A stretch of 64,000 nt of DNA from Mobula hypostoma (GCF_963921235.1 NC_086097.1:43960001-44024000); one strand, 5' to 3'. Shown: positions 28 to 61,708, counted from the stretch's first letter. Notes: generated by a model from the sequence alone, not told the origin. Translations and numbers: made by a program.

Positions 28-3000
28 TTTATACTTTATACTTTATACTTCATTGTCGCCAAACAATTGATACTAGAACGTACAATCATCACAGCAATAT
101 TTGATTCTGCACTTTACACTCTCCGGATTACAAATATTAAAAATAGTTAAAATTAGTAAATATTAAAAATTTAAATTATAAATCATAAATAGAAAATAGA
201 AAAATGGGAAGTAAGGTAGTGCAAAAAAGCCGAGAGGCAGGTCCGGATATTTGGAGGGTATGGCCCAGATCCGGGTCAGGATCCGTTCAGCAGTCCTATC
301 ACAGCTGGAAAGAAGCTGTTCCCAAATCTGGCCGTATGAGTCTTCAAGCTCCTGAACCTTCTCCCGGAGGGAAGAGGGACGAAAAGTCTGTTGGCTGGGT
401 GGGTCGTGTCCTTGATTATCCTGGCAGCACTGTTCTGACAGCGTGCGGTGTAAAGTGAGTCCACGGACGGAAGATTGGTTTGTGTGATGTGCTGTGCCGT
501 GTTCATGATCTTCTGTAGCTTCTTTCGGTCTTGGACAGGACAACCTCCATACCAGGTTGCGATGCACCCTAGAAGAATGCTTTCTACGGTGCATTTATAA
601 AAATTAGTGAGGGTTTTAGGGGACAGGCCAAATTTGTTTAGTTTTCTCAGGAAGTAAAGGCGCTGGTGGGCCTTCTTGGCAGTGAACTCTGCTTGGTTGG
701 ACCAAGTCAGGTCATTTGTGATATTGACCCTGAGGAACTTAAAGCTTTTGACCTGTTCCACTTGCATCCCACCGACGTAAATTGGGTCGTGTGGTCCGCT
801 ACTCCTTCTGAAATCAACAACCAATTCCTTCGTCTTGCTGACGTTGAGGGATAGGTTATTGTCTTCGCACCATGCCACCAGGTTCTTAATTTCCTCTCTG
901 TACTCAAACTCATCATTACCCGAGATACCGCCTACAATTGTTGTGTCATCAGCAAACTTATATATTGAGTTTGATGGAAACTTGGCTACACAATCATGGG
1001 TATACAGTGACCATAGCAGGGGGCTGAGTACACAGCCTTGTGGGGCACCGGTGCTCAGAGTGATTGTAGAGGAGAGCTTGTCCCCTATTTTTACAGCCTG
1101 GGTCCTGTCTGTGAGGAAGTTGAAGATCCAGCTGCAGATCTGAGTGCTAAGGCCCAGGTTCCGGAGCTTAGGAATCAGTTTATTTGGAATGATGGTATTA
1201 AAGGCAGAGCTGTAGTCAATGAAAAGGAGTCTTACATATGCGTCTTTATTCTCCAGGTGTTCTAGGGAGGAATATAGGGCCAGAGAGATGGCATCTGTTG
1301 TTGACCTGTTGCTCCGGTAGGCGAATTGCAAAGCGTCGAGGTTGACCGGTAGGCTGTGGTTGATGTGTGCCATAACCAATCTCTCGAAGCACTTCATAGC
1401 AATTGATGTCAGAGCCACAGGTCGATAATCATTCAGGCATGCCACCTTGCTCTTCTTCGGCACTGGGATTATCGTTGCCTTCTTAAAACACGAGGGGATC
1501 TTAGACTGAAGCAAGGAGCAGTTGAAGATGTCAGCAAACACTGCAGCTAGCTTGCTTGCACAGGCCCGGAGAACCCCTCCCGGGACGCCATCTGGGCCCA
1601 TCGCCTTCCTTGGATTTATCTTCAGGAAGGCCCTTCTAACGACCTTCTCGGTGACGATGAATCTCGATGCCACCAGGTCCGGTTCATCCAGAGGGAGCGG
1701 GACGCTCCTCTTCTATTCAAATCTTGCGTAGAATACGTTAAGTTCGTCAGGAAGAGAAGCGCCACAGTTATTGATATTCCCAGCCTTTTCCTTGTGCCCA
1801 GTGATCTCATTTAGACCCTGCCACAGTCTACTGGCATCCCTTTGGTTAGCCCGGGCTTCCAACTTGGCTCGATATTGCTTCTTGGCGCCCTTAATGCTTT
1901 CCGGAGTTCACGCCTGGATTCCGTGTAGCGACTGGTATCCCCGAACCTAAAAGCCGCAGCTCTAGCCTTTAAAAGGGACTTGACCTCATAATTCATCTAA
2001 GGTTTCCGGTTAGGGAATACCCAGATCATCTTGTGAGATACACAGTCCTCCGTGCATTTCCAAATAAAGTCCGTGACAGCTGAGGCATACTCATCGAGGT
2101 TAGCTGCCAAGTCCTTGAATACTAACCAGTCCACCGATTCAAAGCAGTCACAGAGGACCTCATCCGTTTCCTCCATCCAACGCGACACTACTTTTGACAC
2201 CGTGGCCTCCCGCTTCAGTTTCTGTTTGTAAGTCGGGAGGAGGAGTATGGCCTGATGGTCCAATTTTCCGAAGTGAGGTCGTGGGACGGAACGGTAGGCA
2301 TCCTTGACTGCTGTGTAGCAGTGGTCAAGTATATTTGGGCCTCTAGTGGGGCAGGAGACATGTTGGTATAACTTTGGCAGCGCCTTTCTGAGGTTGGCCT
2401 GGTTAAAGTCCCCGGCTGTAATGAGCAAAGCCTCCGGATACCTGGTCTCAAGTTCACTGATGTTGGCATACAGTATGTTCAGAGCACATTCTACGTCCAC
2501 CTTGGGGGGAATGTAGACCGCTGTCAGTATGACCGAGGTGAATTCCCGTGGCAGATAGTAGGGACGACACTTCACCGACAGGTGTTCCTGGTCCGGGCTG
2601 CAGGAGCTTGTCAGTGCCACTGTGTCCGAGCACCATGCAGTGTTGATCAGTAGGCAGACACCACCTCCGCTCGTCTTGCCCGAAGACGCCATACGGTCCA
2701 TCCAAAGGATCAAAAATCCCTCCGGTCGGATGGCACAGTCGGGGGTGGCAGGGGAGAGCCAGGTCTCGGTGAAACAGAATACACAGCAGTTCTGCATCTC
2801 CCTGCAGTAGGTGAGCCTCCCTTTAAGATCATCCACCTTGTTCTCTATGGCTTGCACATTAGCTAGTAGGATGGTGGGCATAGGGACCCTGAAGCCCCTC
2901 AGCTTCAATCTGACCAGCAGCCCAGCTCTTTTCCCACGCTTCCTTGGTAAGTAGTGCATTTTTCCAGGTCTCCATCGATGCAGTGTGTTGTTGTCAGCTC

Positions 3001-4158: not shown

Positions 4159-5779
4159 TGTTGGCATAGAGCTTTTCCTTGGTTGACCTGTACTTTTCAA
4201 TTCAATGTATAGCCTCAGAGTGCCCAGAGCAAAAGATCATTGAATTTCAAGTACAAGTTTTGTCCATTGAATTAACTGATTGTAACTTTATGCATCAATT
4301 TAAAAATGTTATGCTTCAAATTCCTTTAACCCATAAAATGGACATAGGTCCTGTCAGGGTTAATTGTCATTGTCGGTTCCACTCATTGTGCTGATCTGTG
4401 GGTTTACAAAGAGGATGCCAAACTTTGGTAAGAGTGATCAGGTTTTAAAAACTTGTGTATAACTTTTCAAAATATATCAAAAAACTGGCAACTGGATACC
4501 AATATCCATTCTGTCTAGTTTTATTTAAAAGGACTCTCAGTTACATAAAGCTAGTTAAAAAGAATTAAATTATTTTTAAAATAAACTCAACAGGTAAATA
4601 CAATAACTTTATGCAGTTATTTAAATGTTTAATAGTTTATGATTTCATCAACAAATTTTACCTGTTAATTTATTGTGTTCGTTTGACAGTAATGATATAT
4701 TTGTAAGAAAAAACTACAACTTAATCAGGTCATAGGTTATATGATACTCTTGAGTATTTCTAACTGGAGTACCTGCAGTAATGAACTGTGAATATTATTA
4801 ATGAAAATATTTTATTGTTGTTGTGATTAGCTGGCAATGTTTTTATTTATCAGGGTTTATCAATAAAAACAAAGTCCTGCCCCCACCAGCCTCCGGGTCC
4901 AACATATTATTCTCCGTAACTTCCGCCACCTCCAATGGGATCCCACCACTAAGCACATCTTTCCCTCCCCACCTCTCTCTGCATTCCGCAGGGATCGCTC
5001 CCTACACGACTCCCTTGTCCATTCGTCCCCCCCATCCCTCCCCACTGATCTCCCTCCTGGCACTTATCCGTGTAAGTGGAACAAGTGCTACACATGCCCT
5101 TACACTTCCTCCCTTACCACCATTCAGGGTCCCAAACAGTCCTTCCAGGTGAGGCATCACTTCACCTGTGAGTCAGCTGGGGTGATATACTGCATCTGGT
5201 GCTCCCGATGTGGCCTTTTATATATTGGCGAGACCCGACGCAGACTGGGAGACCGCTTTGCTGAACACCTATGCTCTGTCCACCAGAGAAAGCAGGATCT
5301 CCCAGTGGCCACACATTTTAATTCCACATCCCATTCCCATTCTGACATGTCTATCCACGGCCTCCTCTACTGTAAAGATGAAGCCACACTCAGGTTGGAG
5401 GAATAACACCTTATATTCCATCTGGGTAGCCTCCAACCTGATGGCATGAACATTGACTTCTCTAACTTCCGCTAAAGCCCCACCTCCCCCTCGTACCCCA
5501 TCTGTTATTTATTTATATATACACACATTCTTTCTCTCTCTCTCTCTCTCTCCTTTTTCTCCCACTGTCCCTCTGACTATACCCCTTGCCCATCCTCTGG
5601 GCTCCCCCCCCCTTGTCTTTCTCCCCGGACCTCCTGTCCCATGATCCTCTCATATCCCCTTTGCCTATCACCTGTCCAGCTCTTTGCTCCATCCCTCCCC
5701 CTCCTGTCTTCTCCTATCATTTTCAATCTCCTCCCTCCCCCTCCCACTTTGAAATCTCTTACTATCTCTTCTTTCAGTT

Positions 5780-5815
5780 AGTCCTGACGAAGAGTCTCGG
5801 CCCGAAACGTCAACT
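5780..5815 (+). ncRNA. Minimal type I hammerhead ribozyme motif in pLTR (stem mismatches)
   Basis: AGTC-CTGACGA-AGAGTCTCGGCCC-GAAACGTC-AACT. Core is intact; one mismatch each in stems I and II. Confidence 0.75.
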
Positions 5816-5823
5816 GTACCTCT

Positions 5824-6681
5824 TGTTACGTACCCCGTAACTGGGTTGCCAAACCAGCAGAAATGGATCACTCAGTTGGAGTCTGGAGTACTAGAACTAA
5901 GAAAGTTTTATTAAAGAAACAAGCAACACAGTAATCGAAAGGATAATAAATGCAACAGTTCAGTGATGATAAACACACATGTGCACAGAATTAAGATAAC
6001 AGCATCAATCAAGCTCTATCGTTGTCTAGGGGTAAATGACCAATTTCAAAATGACTCAAAGTTCAGTCCAGTTTAGTAGTTCAGTTCGCAGTAATCGTTG
6101 TCATGGCGATGGACAAGGTGGGGAAGAGAGACATAGAATAGGAACAACTGATCATTCAGCACAGCTTCACTCACAGACCAGCGGGATGGCTCACAAACAG
6201 CATTTGGGCGGGTCCTTGGTGATGTCACCTGAGGTCACCGACTGTGACCCCTCCTCCAGATGCGGTCGATCCTCTGCAGTGAACCCGGCACCCAGGCAAG
6301 GGCGGACACACACCGGGTTCCCGCTGATCGTACCTTTCCACCCTGTGCGTTGTCCGATTCTTCTCACCACTCGTGAGAGGCGCACCGCTTCCAGGGTCTC
6401 GTTACCTCGGGTGGCGTGTGTGTCTGTCTTAGCGAACCTGTCCCTTTTTATCCCCCTGCTGGGGTATCGCCTGTCCATCACTTCAAACAGTTCAGGGTTC
6501 AAAGGGGGGAGCCGCTCCAGACAGCTCTTCCTCCCACATCCCTTCATTACACATCTCCAGACGCTGCTCCATTGTTCCTTATCTCTCCTTCCCCTGAGGG
6601 CAGGTGGCAGACCAACTGCTGATGCCACTGATGCTAGCCCAGGCCAGCAAACATCTTAATTTTATGTGTATTCTCGTAACA
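5824..6681 (-). repeat. 3' LTR (858 bp)
   Basis: TG…CA termini with 7-bp inverted repeat. Adjacent PPT. AATAAA on the minus strand at about 5907-5912. Confidence 0.95.
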
Positions 6682-6695
6682 CTTCCCCCCTTTAA
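6682..6695 (-). promoter_or_regulatory. Polypurine tract
   Basis: Minus strand reads TTAAAGGGGGGAAG immediately before the 3' LTR. Confidence 0.85.
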
Positions 6696-6853
6696 GGATT
6701 TTTACCGGGAGGTAAAAATTACAAACATGACTACATTATCTGATACATACACAATATACATCTTTAACAGTTATTTAGCTAATACAGAGAATTTGAAGCT
6801 GTCAATACCTTGACAGACAGTCATCACATTTTCTGTTCCTTTTACACGTGTTA

Positions 6854-9700
6854 TTAATAATCCCTTAGACCAGGCTCCAACTCAGCAAACTTCATAGTGG
6901 CCAAAAACACTGATGAATTGCGACCAATGTAACCTCTCATTTGGTTTTGTCCCGGACCACAACAACAAGGGTCGTCCCATTCCGACTCAATTTTCCCTCG
7001 CAAGGGCTTAGTAGGAGGGGGACGGGTATTGACCGCAGAGTTATTGCAAAACTTCCTGCAGTACCCCACCATCTCCAAAAGCCTTCTGAGGGCCCTCTTG
7101 TCTGTCGGGGTTGGGAGGTCAGCGATAGCCTGCACTGTAGCTTGCATCACTGCCAGCTGCCCCTGTGTCACCACAATTCCCAGGTAAGTGACATTCGTGT
7201 GGCCGAATTCATTTTTTCCAAGGTTCACTATCAAGCTGGCTTCAGACAGCCGTGTTAGATTGCCAATACACACCTCTGTGTTCATCAGCCCTTTAGTCAC
7301 TGAGTTACTCAAAAAATATGGGTGTTGTTTACTTGGCCGCCCTATTGTAACAGACATAACCCAACGTCCCAGTTCTTTGCATTTCCTCGGGACAATCAAA
7401 CACATGGGTGCGAGTCGTTTAATTACTCCTTCGGGGATTAAGGGAGAGACCTTATCAGTAGACCTGGCCAAAACAATAGCCTTCTCCCATCTGACCGATC
7501 CCATCCTAATCTTTTCAAAATGGTTTTTTCCTCTTAGCAAGGGGCCCCTAGCTTCATTGATTTCCACGCTAACACCGACTAGGTTTGTTAGCATATCAAA
7601 AGCCGGTGACCGTCTCAGTTCGCGTCGGTCATGATCAATAACATTTTTCCCCCTGGGCAGCCGGTAACTCTCTTTCATGATTCCACCAACTGTTTCCTCC
7701 AGCACCGCAAAATGTCCACCGGGGGGTACCTCGTGGGCCATGTTAAAAACCTCATCCCCATAACTCTTTTGCACCACCCCCCACTCCTCATCTGCGGATG
7801 CTGTACTTGATTTCCCTTTCTTCCTTAGCACCTCCTTATCCGCACAATAGCTTGTCAAGGCTGTGTCAGAGAGAGCGGTCTCGGCCAAAACCATCAGCCC
7901 CTCGTCTCGCTCCTGCGTCTGCACAAATTCTTTCCTGGCTACTGCTACGTCCGTCCCAGCTCCCTCACTACCTCTTATCTCACTACACCCTGTCTCATAC
8001 AAGGTTGGCAGAAATGTTTCAGCCAAGTTCACCATCGCGGGCGGGGCCTCCATGCTGGCAGGCTGACCCGTCAATCTCACGACTGGGAACACGATTCCTC
8101 CGGCGATGTCATTACCGAGCAAGACTTCCACGTCTTTCATCGGTAATTCGGACCTCACCCCGATCGTGACTAGTCCAGAGACCAGGTTGCTCTGTAAATG
8201 TATCTGGTGCAAAGGGACTGACTCTGTCCCTTCCCCAACACCTTTGACCTCTACCTCCCCAGTCTGGGTCTCTGAGCTAAACTCTAATACACTCTTCAGT
8301 ATTAGTGACTGACACGCTCCCGTGTCTCTCCAGATCCGCACTGGAACTGGTTTTAACCTCTCCTTCACTGACACCAGTCCGGCCGAGATAAACCTCTCGC
8401 GCCCTTCCTGGACTTTTTCAGACCTGTCCTTCCCTAGCGGTTCGCTTAACAGCTCAATACAGCCATTCAAAATTTCCGCTTTTCCTTTCCCCGTCTCCTT
8501 CCTTGGGGCAAAGCACCTGGACGCAAAGTGTCCGACTTTCCCACAATTATAACAGACGACTCCAGGAGACTTCCTACCAGACTGCTCCCGGTCTACCTTA
8601 TCCTTTTCACTAGTCCCCGGCTTACTTTCTGACTTTTCCGGTGGACTCTCCCCGCCGTCCTGACTACCCTTCTGGTAGCCTTTACTCGGGGCAACCTTCA
8701 TTTTATGCGTCAACGCATACTCATCCGCTAACTTAGCAGTTGCGGCTAACGTGGCTGCCTCTTTCTCATCGAGGTAGGGTCTCATACCCTCAGGGACACA
8801 ACCTTTAAACTGCTCAATCAGAACCAGTTGCAGCAGTCTGTCATAATCCCCCTCTACCCCTTTCGAGGCGCACCAACGCTCACAATATGTTTGCATCTCA
8901 CGAGCAAACTCCAAATACGTGCGGTCCCACCGCTTCCTCGCATTCCGGAACCTCTGCCGGTATGCCTCCGGGACCAACTCATAAGTCCTGAGGATGGCCT
9001 CCTTCACCACCTCATACTTCTGGGCATCTTCCGGGGATAAAGCGGAGTAAGCTTGTTGGGCTTTCCCTTTCAGTACACTCTGAAGTAAAACAACCCACTT
9101 ATCCCTCGGCCAATCCTGACTTATAGCTACTTTTTCGAAGTGGAGAAAGTACCGATCCACATCGGTATCGTCAAAAGGGGGAACCAGCCTAACCTCCTGG
9201 GTCGCCCGGAACCCTCCACCTTGGTTCGGCACGAGCCCCTGCTCGGCCCTTATCCTTAACTTTTCCAGCTCAAATTCCCTTTCCCTCTGTTTCTCCTCTC
9301 TCTCCAACTGTCTGTCCCTCTCTCTCTCTTCTCTCTCCAACTGTCTTTCTCTCTCTTGCCTTTCTAACTCTCTCTCTTTCTCCTGCCTTTCTAACTCTCT
9401 CTCTTTCTCCTGCCTTTCTAACTGCCGTACCCGGAACTCGTGCTCGAGTCTCAGTTTTTCAAGCTGTACCTGTACCGCGTCTCCAGCAGGTTTTTCAATA
9501 GACACCTCCCCCAGCTCACCTTGGGGAAACACACCTTTAGATACATAGTGCTCTACAATAGCTCTGTGTATCTCCTCTCTCCTCATTGTCGACTTCACCT
9601 TAGCAAGATTCACCCGTTTTGCCACAGCTATCAATTCCGATTTCCTGGCATCCTCTAATGCCTCCAAGGTCGGCGCCTTTATAAATTCCTCAACCTCCAT
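6854..9700 (-). CDS. Gag (coiled coil, SCAN-like capsid, CCHC knuckle) + aspartic protease + degenerate integrase/RT tail, 948 aa
   Basis: ATG start. PEAYRQRFR…EQF…LADEY SCAN-like region, CYNCGKVGHFASRC, RDTGACQS…LLGND protease. AHEVPPGGHF integrase Zn-finger half; KQHPY, VTYLG and VGYCRKFC RT remnants; no DDE core, YxDD or RNase H. Confidence 0.9.
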   Translation of the reverse strand: MEVEEFIKAPTLEALEDARKSELIAVAKRVNLAKVKSTMRREEIHRAIVEHYVSKGVFPQGELGEVSIEKPAGDAVQVQLEKLRLEHEFRVRQLERQEKERELERQEKERELERQERERQLEREERERDRQLEREEKQREREFELEKLRIRAEQGLVPNQGGGFRATQEVRLVPPFDDTDVDRYFLHFEKVAISQDWPRDKWVVLLQSVLKGKAQQAYSALSPEDAQKYEVVKEAILRTYELVPEAYRQRFRNARKRWDRTYLEFAREMQTYCERWCASKGVEGDYDRLLQLVLIEQFKGCVPEGMRPYLDEKEAATLAATAKLADEYALTHKMKVAPSKGYQKGSQDGGESPPEKSESKPGTSEKDKVDREQSGRKSPGVVCYNCGKVGHFASRCFAPRKETGKGKAEILNGCIELLSEPLGKDRSEKVQEGRERFISAGLVSVKERLKPVPVRIWRDTGACQSLILKSVLEFSSETQTGEVEVKGVGEGTESVPLHQIHLQSNLVSGLVTIGVRSELPMKDVEVLLGNDIAGGIVFPVVRLTGQPASMEAPPAMVNLAETFLPTLYETGCSEIRGSEGAGTDVAVARKEFVQTQERDEGLMVLAETALSDTALTSYCADKEVLRKKGKSSTASADEEWGVVQKSYGDEVFNMAHEVPPGGHFAVLEETVGGIMKESYRLPRGKNVIDHDRRELRRSPAFDMLTNLVGVSVEINEARGPLLRGKNHFEKIRMGSVRWEKAIVLARSTDKVSPLIPEGVIKRLAPMCLIVPRKCKELGRWVMSVTIGRPSKQHPYFLSNSVTKGLMNTEVCIGNLTRLSEASLIVNLGKNEFGHTNVTYLGIVVTQGQLAVMQATVQAIADLPTPTDKRALRRLLEMVGYCRKFCNNSAVNTRPPPTKPLRGKIESEWDDPCCCGPGQNQMRGYIGRNSSVFLATMKFAELEPGLRDY

Positions 9701-9769
9701 TTCTGCTGTTTGTCTTTTCTTTCTTTCGGGAATTTTAACCCAATCAATTTACTCCGTCCCAAATTTAGC

Positions 9770-9795
9770 GTTCAAAATCGCGGACGAGAACCCCA
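9770..9795 (-). promoter_or_regulatory. Primer-binding site, tRNA-Pro-like, imperfect
   Basis: Minus strand TGGGGTTCTCGTCCGCGATTTTGAAC versus the tRNA-Pro 3' complement TGGGGGCTCGTCCGGGATTTGAAC, 4 nt after the 5' LTR. Confidence 0.8.
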
Positions 9796-9799
9796 CTTA

Positions 9800-10677
9800 T
9801 GTTACGTACCCCGTAACTGGGTTGCCAAACCAGCAGAAATGGATCACTCAGTTGGAGTCTGGAGTACTAGAACTAAGAAAGTTTTATTACAGAAACAAGC
9901 AACACAGTAATCGAAAGGATAATAAATGCAACAGTTCAGTGATGATAAACACACATGTGCACAGAATTAAGATAACAGCATCAATCAAGCTCTATCGTTG
10001 TCTAGGGGTAAATGACCAATTTCAAAATGACTCAAAGTTCAGTCCAGTTTAGTAGTTCAGTTCGCAGTAATCGTTGTCATGGCGATGGACAAGGTGGGGA
10101 AGAGAGACATAGAATAGGAACAACTCATCATTCAGAACGGCTTCACTCACAGACCAGCAAGATGGCTCACAGACCAGCGAGATGGCTCACAAACAGCATT
10201 TGGGCGGGTCCTTGGTGATGTCACCTGAGGTCACCGACTGTGACCCCTCCTCCAGATGCGGTCGATCCTCTGCAGTGAACCCGGCACCCAGGCAAGGGCG
10301 GACACACACCGGGTTCCCGCTGATCGTACCTTTCCACCCTGTGCGTTGTCCGATTCTTCTCACCACTCGTGAGAGGCGCACCGCTTCCAGGGTCTCGTTA
10401 CCTCGGGTGGCGTGTGTGTCTGTCTTAGCGAACCTGTCCCTTTTTATCCCCCTGCTGGGGTATCGCCTGTCCATCACTTCAAACAGTTCAGGGTTCAAAG
10501 GGGGGAGCCGCTCCAGACAGCTCTTCCTCCCACATCCCTTCATTACACATCTCCAGACGCTGCTCCATTGTTCCTTATCTCTCCTTCCCCTGAGGGCAGG
10601 TGGCAGACCAACTGCTGATGCCACTGATGCTAGCCCAGGCCAGCAAACATCTTAATTTTATGTGTATTCTCGTAACA
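9800..10677 (-). repeat. 5' LTR (878 bp)
   Basis: Direct repeat of 5824-6681 with an extra 20-bp tandem unit near 10150-10190 and five substitutions seen by eye. Confidence 0.95.
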
Positions 10678-12175
10678 CTCTTCCTAGAGTTGCTGCCTGG
10701 CCTGCTGTGTTCACCAGCAACTTTGATGTGTGTCCTGCCAATATTATTGCAGAAGATCTGATGAAAGGATATTGGCTCGACTTGACAAATCTTACTTTCT
10801 CTCCCCAGATGCTGACTGATTTACTGAGTTTTTCTACCGTTTTCTGTTTTTGTTTCAGACTTCTAGCATTTGCAGTCTTTGTTCGCTTTTCGAAGACTTT
10901 CGGAAAGAATTACTTTTAATGCAAAATGAAAGGAAATATTAAGTTCTACTTTTGGTGATATGAAAATAAGTTTCAAGAAGTATTAAAAAAGGCATCTCAA
11001 GAAGAGGACAATATTGATGCAATTTATATCCAATTCCTGATTGCTCTGAGAATGGAAACTCTCCACTGTTTATTTTTCAAAACAACACGCATGAAGATGA
11101 AGTTTGATGATGTTCAACATCTATGGCATTCTCTGCCATTTGAATAATGCTTCTCAGCTCAACATATTACTGTTCACCTTATAATGTAGTCTGAAAGCAA
11201 AGAAATGCTCTGGTCTTGATTTGAGCAAATTTATTATACTTGCAAAATGCTAATTTTCTTGATGATTCTATCTATGTATATACTTGTGTTTTGAAGTACT
11301 GATTAGCTTTTTCACTTCCAAGGGGTAAATTGCTGGCTATATTCCGGCTTCCTTTCATGTTGGCCTAATTCTAGTCTCTATCTATGTCAGGGAGAAAATG
11401 ATCTAGCGTAACTGTACACAAATGAGGTGCTCATTTACTGTTGAGAGGGAAAATAACATGCAGAAGCTCAACTGATAGAAAACTTTTCAATATCTGATTC
11501 TATAGATCAGTTAGTAGCTTTATTGTAACTTTTCTCAAGTGGCCTAGCGTTATCATTATCTGCCTTTGTGCAGGAATACTTTAGAGGGCAGGATTTCTAA
11601 TGTGGAAATGTAAGAAAGCAAAGAATCTAAAATTCCCTGCTTATAACATATATTTTGTAAGAATGTTATCCATAATCTTCATGGAAGCTCGGATTTTAAA
11701 TGCATTGTATTTGGAGTATGTGAGATGCTAGTCAATCCGGTTCTATGTTCTTAGAGGCTACTCTGAGATTATCCCCAGATTTAATATTTCTGGTGAATAG
11801 CACTCAGTATAGCAGAAAACACCACACATTCTTCGATATGCATTGTATGAGAATCCAATGACATAAGGATCAACAAGAACAGACCCAATGCTAGGAGAGG
11901 TGGTTAGGTAAGTTGGAGGTTAATGGGGAATTGTGAAGAAATGAATCTAGAATGGCAAGGTAGTATTGGGAGACAGAATCAAGCACTGGCCTACGATTTT
12001 CCAGTGGTATAGGAGACCAAATTGATGGGTGTAGAATTCTTGCTCCATCATGACTTATAAGCATCTTATCAAAGATAAAATTATGCTTGAATGCTTGTCA
12101 CCTTGTAGGCTATAGTGAATGGGAATATGTTGCCTATAGAACTTCACCAGTAAAACTGTGCCGTGGCTAATGATT

Positions 12176-17329: not shown

Positions 17330-20323
17330 GTGATTATGGAATATAAGAGGGATGGGAACCAGTGCAGAGAGACAGAGGGGTGTAAAGTGAGCGTAGAAGC
17401 AAAAAGTACAAAGGAGAAAAGTAAAAGTGGCAGGCCGACAAATCCAGGGCAAGCATTAAAAAGGGCCACTTTTCAACATAATTGTATAAGGGCTAAGAGA
17501 GTTGTAAAAGAGCGCCTGAAGGCTTTATGTGTCAATGCAAGGAGCATTCGTAATAAGGTGGATGAATTGAAAGTGCAGATTGTTATTAATGATTATGATA
17601 TAGTTGGGATCACAGAGACATGGCTTCAGGGTGACCAGGGATGGGAGCTCAACGTTCAGGGATATTCAATATTCAGGAGGGATAGACATGAAGGAAGGGG
17701 AGGTGGGGTGGCGTTGCTGGTTAAAGAAGAGATTAACGCAATAGAAAGGAAGGACATAAGCCGGGAAGATGTGGAATCGATATGGGTAGAGCTGCGTAAC
17801 ACTAAGGGGCAGAAGACGCTGCTGGGAGTTGTGTACAGTCCACCTAACAGTAGTAGTGAGGTCGGAGATGGTATTAAACAGGAAATTAGAAATGTGTGCA
17901 ATAAAGGAACAGCAGTTATAATGGGTGACTTCAATCTACATGTAGATTGGGTGAACCAAATTGGTAAAGGTGCTGAGGAAGAGGATTTCTTGGAATGTAT
18001 GCGGGATGGTTTTTTGAACCAACATGTCGAGGAACCAACTAGAGAGCAGGCTATTCTGGACTGGGTTTTGAGCAATGAGGAAGGGTTAATTAGCGATCTT
18101 GTCGTGAGAGGCCCCTTGGGTAAGAGTGACCATAATATGGTGGAATTCTTCATTAATATGGAGAGTGACATAGTTAATTCAGAAACAAAGGTTCTGAACT
18201 TAAAGAGGGGTAACTTTGAAGGTATGAGACGTGAATTAGCTAAGATAGACTGGCAAATGACACTTAAAGGATTGACGGTGGATATGCAATGGCAAGCATT
18301 TAAAGGTTGCATGGATGAACTACAACAATTGTTCATCCCAGTTTGGCAAAAGAATAAATCAAGGAAGGTAGTGCACCCGTGGCTGACAAGAGAAATTAGG
18401 GATAGTATCAATTCCAAAGAAGTAGCATACAAATTAGCCAGAGAAAGTGGCTCACCTGAGGACTGGGAGAAATTCAGAGTTCAGCAGAGGAGGACAAAGG
18501 GCTTAATTAGGAAGGGGAAAAAAGATTATGAGAGAAAACTGGTGGGGAACATAAAAACGGACTGTAAAAGCTTTTATAGATATGTAAAAAGGAAAAGACT
18601 GGTAAAGACAAATGTAGGTCCCCTGCAGACAGAAACAGGTGAATTGATTATGGGGAGCAAGGACATGGCAGACCAATTGAATAATTACTTTGGTTCTGTC
18701 TTCATTAAGGAGGACATAAATAATCTTCCAGAAATAGTAGGGGACAGAGGGTCCAGTGAGATGGAGGAACTGAGTGAAATACATGTTAGTAGGGAAGTGG
18801 TGTTAGGTAAATTGAAGGGATTGAAGGCAGATAAATCCCCAGGGCCAGATGGTCTGCATCCTAGAGTGCTTAAGGAAGTAGCCCAAGAAATAGTGGATCC
18901 ATTAGTGATAATTTTTCAAAACTCGTTAGATTCTGGACTAGTTCCTGAGGATTGGAGGGTGGCTAATGTAACTCCACTTTTTAAAAAAGGAGGGAGAGAG
19001 AAACCGGGGAATTATAGACCGGTTAGCCTAACGTCGGTGGTGGGGAAACTGCTGGAGTCAGTTATCAAGGATGTGATAACAGCACATTTGGAAAGCGGTG
19101 AAATGATCGGACAAAGTCAGCATGGATTTGTGAAAGGAAAATCATGTCTGACGAATCTCATAGAATTTTTTGAGGATGTAACTAGTAGAGTGGATAGGGG
19201 AGAACCAGTGGATGTGGTATATTTGGATTTTCAAAAGGCTTTTGACAAGGTCCCACACAGGAGATTAGTGTGCAAACTTAAAGCACACGGTATTGGGGGT
19301 AAGGTATTGGTGTGGGTGGAGAATTGGTTAGCAGACAGGAAGCAAAGAGTGGGAATAAACGGGACCTTTTCAGAATGGCAGGCGGTGACTAGTGGGGTAC
19401 CGCAAGGCTCAGTGCTGGGACCCCAGTTGTTTACAATATATATTAATGACTTGGATGAGGGAATTAAATGCAGCATCTCCAAGTTTGCGGATGACACAAA
19501 GCTGGGTGGCAGTGTTAGCAGTGAGGAGGATGCTAAGAGGATGCAGGGTGACTTGGATAGGTTGGGTGAGTGGGCAAACTCATGGCAGATGCAATTTAAT
19601 GTGGATAAATGTGAAGTTATCCACTTTGGTGGCAAAAATAGGAAAACAGATTATTATCTGAATGGTGGCCGATTAGGAAAAGGGGAGGTGCAACGAGACC
19701 TGGGTGTCATTATACACCAGTCATTGAAAGTGGGCATGCAGGTACAACAGGCGGTGAAAAAGGCGAATGGTATGCTGGCATTTATAGCGAGAGGATTCGA
19801 GTACAGGAGCAGGGAGGTACTACTGCAGTTGTACAAGGCCTTGGTGAGACCACACCTGGAGTATTGTGTGCAGTTTTGGTCCCCTAATCTGAGGAAAGAC
19901 ATCTTTGCCATAGAGGGAGTACAAAGAAGGTTCACCAGATTGATTCCTGGGATGGCAGGACTTTCATATGAAGAAAGACTGGATGAACTGGGCATGTACT
20001 CGTTAGAATTTAGAAGATTGAGGGGGGATCTGATTGAAACGTATAAGATCCTAAAGGGATTGGACAGGCTAGATGCAGGAAGATTGTTCCCGATGTTGGG
20101 GAAGTCCAGAACAAGGGGTCACAGTTTGAGGATAGAGGGGAAGCCTTTTAGGACCGAGATTAGGAAAAACTTCTTCACACAGAGAGTGGTGAATCTGTGG
20201 AATTCTCTGCCACAGGAAACTGTTGAGGCCAGTTCATTGGCTATGTTTAAGAGGGAGTTAGATATGGCCCTTGTGGCTACAGGGGTCAGGGGGTATGGAG
20301 GGAAGGCTGGGGCGGGGTTCTGA
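17330..20323 (+). CDS. Uninterrupted CR1 ORF2: APE endonuclease + reverse transcriptase
   Basis: 997-codon open frame with [45 protein letters not shown] and LVRPHLEYCVQFWSP. The first codons come from the host element. Confidence 0.9.
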   Translation: MIMEYKRDGNQCRETEGCKVSVEAKSTKEKSKSGRPTNPGQALKRATFQHNCIRAKRVVKERLKALCVNARSIRNKVDELKVQIVINDYDIVGITETWLQGDQGWELNVQGYSIFRRDRHEGRGGGVALLVKEEINAIERKDISREDVESIWVELRNTKGQKTLLGVVYSPPNSSSEVGDGIKQEIRNVCNKGTAVIMGDFNLHVDWVNQIGKGAEEEDFLECMRDGFLNQHVEEPTREQAILDWVLSNEEGLISDLVVRGPLGKSDHNMVEFFINMESDIVNSETKVLNLKRGNFEGMRRELAKIDWQMTLKGLTVDMQWQAFKGCMDELQQLFIPVWQKNKSRKVVHPWLTREIRDSINSKEVAYKLARESGSPEDWEKFRVQQRRTKGLIRKGKKDYERKLVGNIKTDCKSFYRYVKRKRLVKTNVGPLQTETGELIMGSKDMADQLNNYFGSVFIKEDINNLPEIVGDRGSSEMEELSEIHVSREVVLGKLKGLKADKSPGPDGLHPRVLKEVAQEIVDPLVIIFQNSLDSGLVPEDWRVANVTPLFKKGGREKPGNYRPVSLTSVVGKLLESVIKDVITAHLESGEMIGQSQHGFVKGKSCLTNLIEFFEDVTSRVDRGEPVDVVYLDFQKAFDKVPHRRLVCKLKAHGIGGKVLVWVENWLADRKQRVGINGTFSEWQAVTSGVPQGSVLGPQLFTIYINDLDEGIKCSISKFADDTKLGGSVSSEEDAKRMQGDLDRLGEWANSWQMQFNVDKCEVIHFGGKNRKTDYYLNGGRLGKGEVQRDLGVIIHQSLKVGMQVQQAVKKANGMLAFIARGFEYRSREVLLQLYKALVRPHLEYCVQFWSPNLRKDIFAIEGVQRRFTRLIPGMAGLSYEERLDELGMYSLEFRRLRGDLIETYKILKGLDRLDAGRLFPMLGKSRTRGHSLRIEGKPFRTEIRKNFFTQRVVNLWNSLPQETVEASSLAMFKRELDMALVATGVRGYGGKAGAGF

Positions 20324-48030: not shown

Positions 48031-50990
48031 ATGAGGGTAGAAGCAAAAAGTAGTAAGGTGAAAAGTAAAAGTGGCAGGCTGGCAAATCCAGGGCAAAAAT
48101 CACAAAGGGCCACTTTTCAACATAATTGTATGAGGGCTAATAGTGTTGTAAAAGCGAGCCTGAAGGCTTTGTGTGTCAATGCAAGGAGCATTCGTAACAA
48201 GGTGGATGAATTAAAAGTTCAGATTGTTATTAATGAATATGATATAGTTGGGATCACAGAGACATGGCTCCAGGGTGACCAAGGATGGGAGCTCAACATT
48301 CAGGGATATTCAATATTCAGGAGGGATAGACATGAAAGAAAAGGAGGTGGGGTAGCATTGCTGGTTAGAGAGGAGATTTATGCAATAGAAAGGAAAGACA
48401 TTAGCCGGGAGGATTGGAATCGATATAGGTAGAGCTGCGGAACACTAAGGGGCAGAAGACGCTGGTGGGAGTTGTGTACAGGCCACCTAACAGTAGTAGT
48501 GAGGTTGGGGATGGCATTAAACAGGAAATTAGAAATGCGTGCAATAAAGGAACAGCAGTTATAATGGGTGACTTCAATCTACATACAGATTGGGTGAACC
48601 AAATTGGTAAGGGTGCTGAGGAAGAGGATTTCTTGGAATGTATGCGGGATGGTTTTTTGAACCAACATGTCGAGGAACCAACTAGAGAGCAGGCCATTCT
48701 AGACTGGGTATTGAGCAATGAGGAAGGGTTAATTAGCAATCTTGTCGTGAGAGGCCCCTTGGGTAAGAGTGACCATAATATGGTGGAATTCTTCATTAAG
48801 ACGGAGAGTGACATAGTTAATTCAGAAACAAAGGTTCTGAACTTAAAGAAGGGTAACTTTGAAGGTATGAGACGTGAATTAGCTAAGATAAACTGGCAAA
48901 TAATACTTAAAGGGTTGACGGTGGATATGCAATGGCAAGCATTTAAAGATCGCATGGATGAACTACAACAATTGTTCATCCCAGTTTGGCAAAAGAATAA
49001 ATCAAGGAAGGTAGTGCACCTGTGGCTGACAAGGGAAATTAGGGATAGTATCAATTCCAAAGAAGAAACATACAAATTAGCCAGAAAAAGCGGCTCACCT
49101 GAGCACTAGGAAAAATTCAGAGTCCAGCAGAGCAGGACAAAGCGCTTAATTTGGAAAGGGAAAAAAGATTATGAGAGAAAACTGGCAGGGAACATAAAAA
49201 CTGACTGTAAAAGCTTTTATAGATATGTGAAAAGAAAAAGATTAGTTAAGATAAATGTAGGTCCCTTACAGACAGAAACAGGTGAATTGATTGTGGGGAA
49301 CAAGGACATAGCAGATCAATTGAATAAGTACTTTGGTTCTGTCTTCACTAAGGAGGACATAAATAATCTTCTGGAAATAGTAGAGGACAGAGGGTCTAGT
49401 GAGATGGAGGAACTGAGGGAAATACATGTTCGTAGGGAAGTGGTGTTAGGTAAATTGAAGGCGTTAAAGGCAGATAAATCCCCAGGGCCAGATGGTCTGC
49501 ATCCCAGAGTGCTTAAGGAAGTAGCCCAAGAAATAGTGGATGCATTAGTGATAATTTTTCAAAACTCTTTAGATTCTGGACTAGTTCCTGAGGATTGGAG
49601 GGTGGCTAATGTAACCCCACTTTTTAAAAAAGGAGGGAGAGAGAAACCAGGGAATTATAGACCAGTTAGCCTAACATCGGTGGTGGGGAAAATGCTAGAG
49701 TCAGTTATCAAAGACGTGATAACAGCACATTTGGAAAGCGGTGAAATGATCGGACAAAGTCAGCATGGATTTGTGAAAGGAAAATCATGTCTGACGAATC
49801 TCATAAAATTTTTTGAGGATGTAACTACTAGAGTGGATAGGGGAGAACCAGTGGATGAGGTATATTTGGATTTTCAAAAGGCTTTTGACAAGGTCCCACA
49901 CAGGAGATTAGTGTGCAAACTTAAAGCACACAGTATTGGGGGTATGGTATTGATGTGGATAGATAATTGGTTGGCAGACAGGAAGCAAAGAGTGGGAATA
50001 AACGGGACCTTTTCAGAATGGCAGGCAGTGACTAGTGGGGTACTGCAAGGATCAGTGCTGGGACCCCAGTTGTTTACAATATATATTAATGACTTAGATG
50101 AGGGAATTAAATGCAGCATCTCCAAGTTTGCGGATGACACGAAGCTGGGCAGCAGTGTTAGCTGTGAGGAGGATGCTAAGAGGATGCAGGGTGACTTGGA
50201 TAGGTTAGGTGAGTGGGCAAATTCATGGCAGATGCAATTTAATGTGGATAAATGTGAGGTTATCCACTTTGGTGGCGAAAACAGGAAAACAGATTATTAT
50301 CTGAATGGTGGCCGATTAGGAAAAGGGGAGGTGCAACAAGACCTGGGTGTCATTATACACCAGTCATTGAAGTGGTCATGTAGGTACAGCAGGCGGTGAG
50401 AAAGGCGAATGGTATGCTGGCATTCATAGCAAAAGGATTCGAGTACAGGAGCAGGGAGGTACTACTGCAGTTGTACAAGGCCTTGGTGAGACCACACCTG
50501 GAGTATTGCGTGCAGTTTTGGTCCCCTAATCTGAGGAAAGACATTCTTGCCATAGAGGGAGTACAAAGAAGGTTCGCCAGATTGATTCCTGGGATGGCAG
50601 GACTTTCATATGATGAAGGACTGGATCGACTAGGCTTATACTTGTTGGAATTTAGAAGATTGAGGGGGGATCTTATTGAAACGTATAAAAGCCTAAAGGG
50701 ATTGGACAGGCTAGATGCAGAAAGATTGTTCCCGATGTTGGGGAAGTCCAGAACGAGGGGTGTTGGGGAAGTCCAGAACGAGGGGTCACAGTTTGAGGAT
50801 AAAGGGGAAGCCTTTTAGGACCGAGATTAGGAAAAACTTCTTCACACAGAGAGTGGTGAATCTGTGGAATTCTCTGCCACAGGAATCAGTTGAGGCCAGT
50901 TCATTGGCTATATTTAAGAGGGAGTTAGATATGGCCCTTGTGGCTAAAGGGATCAGGGGGTATGGAGGGAAGGCTGGTACAGGGTTCTGA
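48031..50990 (+). pseudogene. CR1 ORF2 (APE-RT), disrupted
   Basis: Frameshifts near 48410 and 50372, a stop at 49107-49109, and a 25-bp tandem duplication at 50736-50785. Confidence 0.9.
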
Positions 50991-59858: not shown

Positions 59859-61270
59859 TTAGCGGAAGTTAGAGAAGTCGATGTTCATGCCATCAGGTTG
59901 GAGGCTACCCAGACGGAATATAAGGTGTTGTTCCTCCAACCTGAGTGTGGCTTCATCTTTACAGTAGAGGAGGCCGTGGATAGACATGTCAGAATGGGAA
60001 TGGGATGTGGAATTAAAATGTGTGGCCACTGGGAGATCCCGCTTTCTCTGGCGGACGGAGCGTAGATGTTCAGCAAAGCGGTCTCCCAGTCTGCGTCGGG
60101 TCTTGCCAATATATAAAAGGCCACATCGGGAGCACTGGACGCTGTATATCACCCCAGTCGACTCACAGGTGAAGTGTTGCCTCACCTGGAAGGACTGTTT
60201 GGGGCCCTGAATGGTGGTAAGGGAGGAAGTGTAAGGGCATGTGTAGCACTTGTTCCGCTTACACGGATAAGTGCCAGGAGGGAGATCAGTGGGGAGGGAT
60301 GGGGGGGACGAATGGACAAGGGAGTTGCGTAGGGAGCGATCTCTGCGGAATGCAGAGAGAGGTGGGGAGGGAAAGATATGTTTAGTGGTGGGATCCCATT
60401 GGAGGTGGCGGAAGTTACGGAGAATAATATGTTGGACCCGGAGGCTGGTGGGGTGGTAGGTGAGGACCAGGGGAACCCTATTCCTAGTGGGGTGGCGGGA
60501 GGATGGAGTGAGAGCAGATGTACGTGAAATGGGGGAGATGCGTTTAAGAGCAGAGTTGATAGTGGAGGAAGGGAAGCCTCTTTCTTTAAAAAAGGAAGAC
60601 ATCTCCCTTGTCCTAGAATGAAAAGCCTCACCCTGAGAGCAGATGCGGCGGAGACGGAGGAATTGCGAGAAGGGGATGGCGTTTTTGCAAGAGACAGGGT
60701 GAGAAGAGGAATAGTCCAGATAGCTGTGAGAGTCAGTAGGCTTATAGTAGACATCAGTGGATAAGCTGTCTCCAGAGACAGAGACAGAAAGATCTAGAAA
60801 GGGGAGGGAGGTGTCGGAGATGGACCAGGTGAACTTGAGGGCAGGGTGAAAGTTGGAGGCAAAGTTAATAAAGTCAACGAGCTCTGCATGCGTGCAGGAA
60901 GCAGCGCCAATGCAGTCGTCGATGTAGTGAAGGAAAAGTGAGGGACGGATACCAGAATAGGCATGGAACATAGATTGTTCCACAAACCCAACAAAAAGGC
61001 AGGCATAGCTAAGACCCATACGGGTGCCCATAGCTACACCTTTAGTTTGGAGGAAGTGGGAGGAGCCAAAGGAGAAATTATTAAGAGTAAGGACTAATTC
61101 CGCTAGACGGAGCAGAGTGGTGGTAGAGGGGAACTGATTAGGTCTGGAATCCAAAAAGATGCGTAGAGCTTTGAGACCTTCCTGATGGGGGATGGAAGTA
61201 TATAAGGACTGGACATCCATGGTGAAAATAAAGCGGTGGGGGCCAGGGAACTTAAAATCATCGAAAAGTT
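59859..61270 (-). CDS. Penelope RT + GIY-YIG endonuclease, open frame, N-terminally truncated
   Basis: FTMDVQSLYT, QTKGVAMG, HYIDD, FLDL, YYKPTD, GVIYSVQC…LYIGKT…RFAEH…E…GMN. The ORF-track start at 61295 lies in the inverted arm. Confidence 0.88.
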
Positions 61271-61708
61271 CCCCATCCCATTCCCATTCTGACATGTCTA
61301 TCCACGGCCTCCTCTACTGTAAAGATGAAGCCACACTCAGGTTGGAGGAACAACACCTTATATTCCGTCTGGGTAGCCTCCAACCTGATGGCATGAACAT
61401 CGACTTCTCTAACTTCCGCTAAGGGCCCACCTCCCCCTCGTACCCCATCTGTTATTCATTTTTATGCACACACTCTTTCTCTCACTCTCCTTTTTGTCCC
61501 TCTGAATATACCTCTTGCCCATCCTCTGGGTTCCCCACACCTTGTCTTTCTTCCCGGACCTCCTGTCCCATGATCCTCTCGTATCCCCTTTTGCCTATCA
61601 CCTGTCCAGCTCTTGGCTCTATCCCTCCCCCTCCTGTCTTCTCCTATCATTTTGGATCTCCCCCTCCCCCTCCAACTTTCAAATCCCTTACTCACTCTTC
61701 CTTCAGTT

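Follow-up and report, generated by a model that had tools for sequence, protein, structure and literature searches.

The stretch under study, referred to here as the window, was 64,000 nt of one strand of the Mobula hypostoma genome (GCF_963921235.1 NC_086097.1:43960001-44024000), and it contained a high-copy, recently mobile, semi-autonomous long terminal repeat (LTR) retrotransposon of the Gmr1 type. The element descended long ago from a full-length ancestor through stepwise deletions in pol. It retained a pol tail that encodes no working enzyme, yet is clear of stop codons and frameshifts almost to its 3′ end. The explanation as a whole, which combines an old and stepwise loss of pol, a semi-autonomous Gag-protease element, a sequence pool shared with a full-length partner, and a tail that stays readable, is probably correct.

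The single open reading frame (ORF) of 948 aa between near-identical LTRs, with a target-site duplication (TSD), a primer-binding site (PBS), and a polypurine tract (PPT), had been claimed by a first-pass annotation and was borne out by reading of the sequence (Table 1). The two LTRs were set apart by 5 substitutions plus a single 20-nt indel, the stop codon of the ORF was located 172 nt upstream of the 3′ LTR, and a hexamer resembling a polyadenylation signal was found at position 770 of the 3′ LTR. When the ORF was searched against Pfam, a SCAN domain (PF02023; aa 244-333, E 1e-12) and a zf-CCHC domain (aa 382-396) were found and nothing else; the last 393 aa gave no match at E<=1, and no complete reverse transcriptase (RT) or integrase (IN) domain was detected by profile search. 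The structure model was confident for the N-terminus, the coiled coil, the capsid, and the protease; built from a gappy alignment, it gave a predicted local distance difference test score (pLDDT) of <50 at aa 629-857 and 880-948. The fold search returned nothing at E<=0.001 (best about 1e-3), with retroviral and Ddi1-type proteases and one SCAN domain in the top ranks.

When the ORF was aligned with full-length partners, the scraps of the tail were colinear with pol and lay in the pol frame, and each scrap named beforehand was recognized. The integrase remnant contained the His pair but had lost the Cys pair by deletion and the core entirely, the KQHPY motif was fused to the RT catalytic region, and the RT thumb was present. 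The absence of RNase H (RH), also proposed at first, agreed with the lack of a Pfam match, but a 24-aa C-terminal scrap of this domain (aa 914-937) was present. In a sample of 49 of the about 2,300 copies (28 best-scoring, 16 position-sampled, and 5 older, with two tandem partners dropped), the YIDD site of RT read CIGN in 48/49 copies and CIGD in 1, the CCHC knuckle was retained in 49/49, and the DTG of the protease in 47/49. These counts agree with the earlier claim of an intact knuckle and protease. The catalytic and zinc-binding residues of pol were gone in every copy checked, with only the second integrase His scored across copies. About 380 codons of pol remnant were held in frame, and RT and integrase function was, by sequence, lost. 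A reading of the large deletions as introns removed from a subgenomic RNA was rejected because GT-AG ends were absent at the aligned junctions; the 384-nt deletion had a 9-nt microhomology at its junction in a full-length copy. The SCAN-type capsid, the order of protease (PR), IN, RT, and RH, and the LTRs, TSD, PBS, and PPT place the element among the Gmr1-like Ty3/gypsy LTR retrotransposons, as had been proposed from integrase preceding RT and a SCAN-like capsid. Its best full-length matches carried SCAN, IN, and RT domains. An autonomous Gmr1 element has intact integrase, RT, and RNase H, and by this standard the present one is predicted to be non-autonomous.

A single-copy accident was ruled out by the size of the family. 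A 30-base word over the integrase-deletion junction had 2,287 matches with <=2 mismatches, and one of equal length taken within the deleted RT core had 235 (32 exact among those listed); the control words for both had 0. These are single-word counts, in which sister families are also picked up by the RT word and old copies escape the junction word. The short element was roughly tenfold more numerous than RT-bearing copies. Searching at the DNA level returned 2,810 candidates, and all 40 scored ones were full length at 98-100%. Both LTRs were resolved in 27 of the 30 best copies; 26 of these 27 pairs were 0-7 substitutions apart and one pair 15. A direct 4-bp TSD was found in 22/27 resolved copies, and the remaining 5/27 lay in tandem arrangements. 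The closest named proteins were from Mobula hypostoma (up to 96%), one of them encoded at 100% in this genome. Contigs of a second organism (organism B, run X5) crossed the integrase junction with 13 differences over 208 nt, and the integrase deletion therefore predates the split of the two organisms. Tandem three-LTR arrangements were observed in both the short and the full-length families (L012/L013, L021/L026, L015, and L031).

With a stingray protein as the query, full-length relatives were retrieved whose frames ran to 1,551-1,580 codons, and 9 full-length copies were used for comparison. In the partner copies L031 and L032, Gag and Pol formed one unbroken ORF of 1,564 and 1,535 aa, respectively, and the leader and the PBS type were the same as in the short element. 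In both, the Pfam domains H2C2, rve, RVT_1, and RNase H followed the Gmr1 order of IN, RT, and RH. The autonomous partner that had been postulated, with the same LTR ends and PBS, was thus found as a full-length family sharing LTR, PBS, and leader. The LTR of the window element differed from the current full-length family by 2.5-3.4% substitutions (5/5 LTRs), from five older short copies by 4.0-6.8%, and from four older full-length copies by 11-21%.

When the window element was compared with L032 along its length, the synonymous divergence (dS) was 0.015 at aa 1-95, 0.038 in the capsid, and 0.05 in the knuckle region, and then 0.25 at aa 398-432, 0.31 and patchy in the protease, and 0.62 in the tail. 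The tail dS to L033, a sister full-length copy, was 0.47, and L032 and L033 were 0.38 apart over the same tail codons. Because L032 and L033 were closer to each other than to the tail, the dead tail split from the pol lineage earlier than the L032 and L033 families did. The gag of the short element was as near to the helper as helpers were among themselves. Five helper copies were 0-1.4% apart in two tail segments and 1-4% apart in the capsid, and the capsid of helper L057 was 2.0-2.2% from short copies, compared with 3.2-4.1% from other helpers. Trees were built from 20 short and 9 full-length copies. The tail tree grouped the short copies in one clade (100/100), whereas for gag such a clade was rejected (approximately unbiased test, p-AU 4e-5). 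These comparisons show that the short element and the current full-length family draw LTR, PBS, and gag from a single pool, and that the tail is far older than the young LTRs would imply.

The simplest cause of this mosaic would be template switching between co-packaged RNAs, which requires that a particle package both RNAs; gene conversion among copies in the genome may be an alternative route. Blocks of the protease were 2%, 23%, and 10% from the helper. In the block with the active site, the helper was close to the short element but at an unusually large distance from its own predecessors, which suggests that this block moved from the short element into the helper. The partner thus appears, from such sequence blocks, to have taken gag and protease segments from the short element too, although synonymous distances to the outgroup did not decide the direction of the gag transfer. 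Two main PBS variants were both present in short and full-length copies, with L005, L006, L010, L017, L028, L051, L055, and L060 differing from the other loci. The PBS of the element is presumably of the tRNA-Pro type; one variant matches what we take to be the tRNA-Pro site, and the other is two changes off. The coexistence of the variants would fit a PBS that is copied anew from the primer tRNA. The coiled-coil repeat in Gag (9251-9424) varied in length by up to about 190 nt among copies, mostly in frame.

Variants present in two or more copies (inherited) were compared with variants present in one copy only (private). Among the 49 copies, inherited variants comprised 21 non-synonymous and 37 synonymous changes in gag and 6 and 12 in the protease, a ratio of non-synonymous to synonymous polymorphism (pN/pS) of about 0.17 in each case, and 60 and 33 in the tail (pN/pS about 0.58). 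The private variants gave 0.42 for gag, 0.43 for the protease, and 0.88 for the tail, and the difference between inherited and private variants was significant in gag alone (Fisher p 0.007; protease 0.16, tail 0.15). Purifying selection acts on Gag and protease, whereas the tail drifts near neutrally. The branch leading to the tail, worked from distances, had a dS of about 0.36 and a non-synonymous divergence (dN) of about 0.27.

The frame of the tail was nevertheless kept. With L033 as the reference and under the strictest gap setting of the three used, 13/13 indels at aa 555-912 were multiples of three (-63, -21, -12, -15, +3, -51, -837, -18, +3, -384, -54, +3, and -258 nt; chance about 6e-7). 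This was true of 0/6 indels beginning with aa 937 (-14, -8, -4, +1, -1, and +2 nt; end gap excluded). The expectation that all deletions would be multiples of three therefore stood over aa 555-912 and failed at the very end, where the 14-nt deletion put the last 11 aa off-frame. Stops accounted for 6/154 private variants in the tail and for 0/93 inherited ones (about 3.6 expected). When neutral evolution was simulated with 0.15-0.35 substitutions per site, 4.6-8.9 stops (about 7) were expected, with a probability of none of 0.008-0.0002. Together with the near-neutral drift of the tail, these counts uphold the proposal that an open frame was selected rather than an enzyme. Since stops and frameshifts were purged and the last 11 aa are off-frame, no motif at the end of pol is needed. 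Four small tail deletions (27, 21, 12, and 18 nt) segregated in mixed combinations, all in frame; as all these copies have a dead RT, the frame constraint is current and the tail is still shrinking. The other two sense frames across the ORF contained 34 and 32 stops. An antisense ORF as the holder of the frame was rejected, the opposite strand being stop-free for at most 148 codons.

Breaks of the frame were present in other copies, but they were scattered and private. With the copy number and the lack of complete RT or IN domains, none of the three refuting outcomes set beforehand was thus obtained. Among the 29 other best copies, 25 were open and 4 broken, and the differing, private positions of the breaks are the pattern given by decay after insertion. 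The one break met twice, a +1 indel at aa 918, was rejected as an inherited break; the two unrelated copies carrying it were not nearest neighbours and the site lies in an A run, so that recurrent slippage was adopted instead. A frameshift at aa 846 was likewise rejected as a common variant, the site being in frame in 100/100 of the first 100 listed among 985 exact matches.

Several observations weigh against the explanation as a whole. The protease test by itself was non-significant (p 0.16). The count of 13 in-frame indels varied with the gap settings: under looser ones the large deletions fell apart into pieces that were not triplets, although the phase came back to zero on both sides. Of the 16 position-sampled copies, 4 were open to the end, 5 were broken in the tail, and 7 in gag-protease. 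Two older copies, P0004 and P0005, had the aa 846 frameshift in common and an ORF about 270 nt shorter, and the shifted frame was read by 3/53 loci, one of them via a different indel. The lower inherited than private pN/pS of the tail would allow a weak protein-level constraint. Finally, avoidance of RNA decay, the cause considered below, accounts for the purged stops but not for the keeping of 1.2 kb of dead sequence undeleted; a weak protein role or an RNA role would account for that instead.

The position-sampled copies also bear on a staged decay under no present selection, in which the early deletions were in frame while RT and RNase H still worked and the later copies came from a few lucky masters. 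Integrase lies upstream of RT, so that its loss had to keep the frame if RT was still used; the copies trace to few lineages, and a break was found in 12/16 sampled copies. However, the deletions within RT and RNase H were in frame too, the four segregating deletions are younger than the death of RT and all in frame (chance 1 in 81), and the inherited stops fell short of expectation. Staged decay is considered very improbable.

According to the preferred explanation, the RNA of the element would be translated to Gag-protease, which would build and mature particles, and RT and integrase would be supplied by co-assembled helper polyprotein. Template switching among the co-packaged RNAs would renew LTR and gag in both directions. 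A stop directly after the protease would more than double the 3′ untranslated region (UTR), now about 0.95 kb, to about 2.1 kb. This would leave the RNA open to nonsense-mediated decay, and copies on which ribosomes run to the end would out-replicate copies that stop early. Long 3′ UTRs are described as exposing retroviral RNA to decay (PMC2925335). Escape from nonsense-mediated decay, proposed beforehand along with co-assembly and interference with the helper, is the least certain part of the explanation and is favoured, indirectly, because stops and frameshifts are both purged while the C-terminal residues are arbitrary, because the tolerated breaks lie near the end, and because a post-protease stop lengthens the 3′ UTR; the chance that it is what keeps the tail readable is put at about even.

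It is unlikely, though conceivable, that the tail matters as a protein and not just as an open stretch. It would then help the protease to pair and mature, hold the polyprotein in a shape that can co-assemble with helper Gag-Pol, or serve as a decoy that works against the helper. Such a role would agree with the tail pN/pS of 0.58 against 0.88, with a branch dN/dS of about 0.6 for the scraps of integrase and RT, compared with about 1.0 for the linker, with the retention of the tail over a dS of about 0.36 rather than its deletion, and with the 76% identity still held by the thumb stretch. However, the pN/pS difference was non-significant (p 0.15), and the branch covers a period of working pol, which itself lowers dN/dS. 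The catalytic and zinc-binding residues were missing in all copies checked, the low pLDDT, from a gappy alignment, covered aa 629-857 and 880-948, and the tail goes on shrinking. An improbable alternative is a role of the tail as RNA, in packaging, dimerisation, export, or genome length, with a ribosome sweep needed for that role or for cis packaging and no decay involved. This would explain why the sequence is retained, and scraps persisted in two organisms, as seen at the integrase junction; however, the synonymous divergence of the tail was as fast as expected, and a second assumption is required for the frame.

An extension of the semi-autonomous explanation, possible but doubtful, is a division of labour in a two-genome retrotransposon, in which the short element would give surplus capsid and protease and the dead pol would serve as a translated spacer against RNA surveillance. 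Since Gag and Pol of the partner lie in one ORF, capsid and enzymes would be made one to one by the partner alone. Semi-autonomous Gag-Pro elements with an autonomous partner, RLG_Wilma, have been described in wheat and barley as RLG_Sabrina_SA and RLG_WHAM, and their authors propose a bulk supply of Gag (PMC9744471 and PMC5738225). The ray element resembles them in its intact Gag-protease ORF without RT or integrase function, its thousands of copies, and its long co-evolution with an autonomous partner. It differs in that the plant elements belong to the Athila clade and their RT and integrase coding is described there as absent, whereas the ray element has an in-frame remnant. In barley, DNA likeness to the putative helper is confined to the LTR 3′ end and the PBS, whereas the gag and LTR of the ray element were 97-99% alike with those of the helper and intermixed with them in trees.

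Gmr1-like elements have a SCAN-type capsid followed by PR, IN, and RT-RH and are abundant in fish (10.1101/2025.03.03.638093); the ray member lost every pol enzyme. TR-GAG elements of plants (PMC4350172) and Bik-1 and Bik-2 of zebrafish (PMC12067270) are non-autonomous, mobile LTR elements that keep a gag ORF only. The ray element differs from them in having a protease and a pol remnant that stays readable, and its helper, which shares its gag, was identified. At 4,854 nt, with protease and pol remnant after Gag, it lies outside the TR-GAG definition (under 4 kb, Gag-only ORF). Du et al. (2010) reportedly described an exchange of LTRs among soybean elements of the autonomous and the non-autonomous kind. 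Recombination among defective and intact retrotransposon members is covered by reviews (PMC6894440 and PMC13570524). In the recombining clans of the former (PMC6894440), recombination during reverse transcription likewise links defective and intact members; unlike there, the exchanged block of the ray element ran from the LTR through capsid and knuckle, with patches of protease, and the old tail was left unexchanged. Rous sarcoma virus (RSV) offers a resemblance only: its Gag-translating genomic RNA with a long 3′ UTR faces nonsense-mediated decay and shields its early stop by an RNA element, and the ray element would avoid an early stop altogether. The literature search found no non-autonomous Gmr1 family, no such ray element, and no in-frame dead pol, which is weak evidence of absence as most subscription journals and Repbase lay outside its reach. 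The element is thus of a known kind, a semi-autonomous Gag-protease element, and its translatable dead pol and capsid pool in common with the helper were not found in the literature searched.

The thousands of copies provide a natural experiment that separates selection on an open frame from selection on a protein, and a handle on whether nonsense-mediated decay shapes the genomes of animal LTR retrotransposons. A helper and a dependant with one capsid pool and pol regions long apart bear on the question of parasite versus capsid supplier, and trees of LTR or gag misdate such families. In practice, copies carry host-gene annotation: P0002, P0009, and P0010 were annotated as host genes, with a MACC1 isoform, a trichohyalin-like protein, and a phosphatidylserine decarboxylase isoform among the names.

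Table 1. Features of the retrotransposon in the window (positions counted from its first nucleotide)
Feature	Position	Strand	Remark
LTR element, whole	5824-10677	-	4,854 nt
5′ LTR	9800..10677	-	878 nt, TG...CA ends
3′ LTR	5824..6681	-	858 nt
TSD, right copy	10678..10681	.	4 bp
TSD, left copy	5820..5823	.	4 bp
PBS	9778..9795	-	preceded by a 4-nt spacer
PPT	6682..6693	-	directly adjoins the 3′ LTR
ORF: Gag, protease, dead pol tail	6854..9700	-	948 aa, one frame, stop-free
Charged coiled-coil repeat	9251..9424	-	aa about 93-150; length differs between copies
Capsid	8702..9211	-	aa about 164-333; SCAN domain at 8702-8971
CCHC zinc knuckle	8513..8557	-	Pfam zf-CCHC; partner-like sequence stops just beyond, at aa 397
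Aspartic protease, DTG	8099..8404	-	aa 433-534; mosaic blocks relative to partner
Dead tail 1: integrase N-terminal remnant	7598..8029	-	aa 558-701; 837-nt deletion at end
Dead tail 2: integrase-RT linker to KQHPY	7307..7597	-	aa 702-798; 384-nt deletion at end
Dead tail 3: RT catalytic site and thumb	6965..7306	-	aa 799-912; 258-nt deletion at end
Dead tail 4: RNase H C-terminal scrap	6890..6961	-	aa 914-937, 24 aa
Off-frame end: 11 codons and stop	6854..6889	-	aa 938-948; downstream of 14-nt deletion

Similar proteins were observed elsewhere. The stingray proteins P0021 and P0022, from two genera, were 79% alike over their whole length and consisted of Gag-protease followed by an open tail. 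In P0016, P0021, and P0022 the open tail looks like a decayed second capsid-protease copy, and these proteins may represent another family whose junk tail stays readable. When such a family was sought in the present genome, the matches were limited to the Gag-protease part of P0021 (to about residue 500) and yielded no loci. A further 58 proteins (P0052-P0120), of an unrelated Gmr1-like family, had Gag-protease and a lysine/glutamate-rich tail in place of pol, and the same motif ended 32/58 of them. The stop-free, non-enzymatic tails of the stingray proteins and of the family of 58 could be a sign that this design has arisen again and again among Gmr1 elements.

An antisense ORF of 207 codons was located inside the 3′ LTR (window 6036-6659, plus strand) and is probably a chance product; its counterpart in the 5′ LTR had just 157 codons because of the 20-nt indel. 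The flanks of the element (5760-5823 and 10678-10735) read together as one unbroken repeat interrupted by the insertion, which we take to be the 3′ end of a CR1-type long interspersed nuclear element (LINE) or a related short interspersed nuclear element of cartilaginous fish. Elsewhere in the window, a LINE ORF2 of 995 aa with endonuclease and RT domains was found at 17336-20323 (plus strand), and a Penelope-like ORF of 478 aa with weak RT and GIY-YIG matches at 59859-61295 (minus strand). LINE-type RT fragments were located at 276-1601 (minus strand) and 49404-50399 (plus strand), the former also matching ALKBH8_N.

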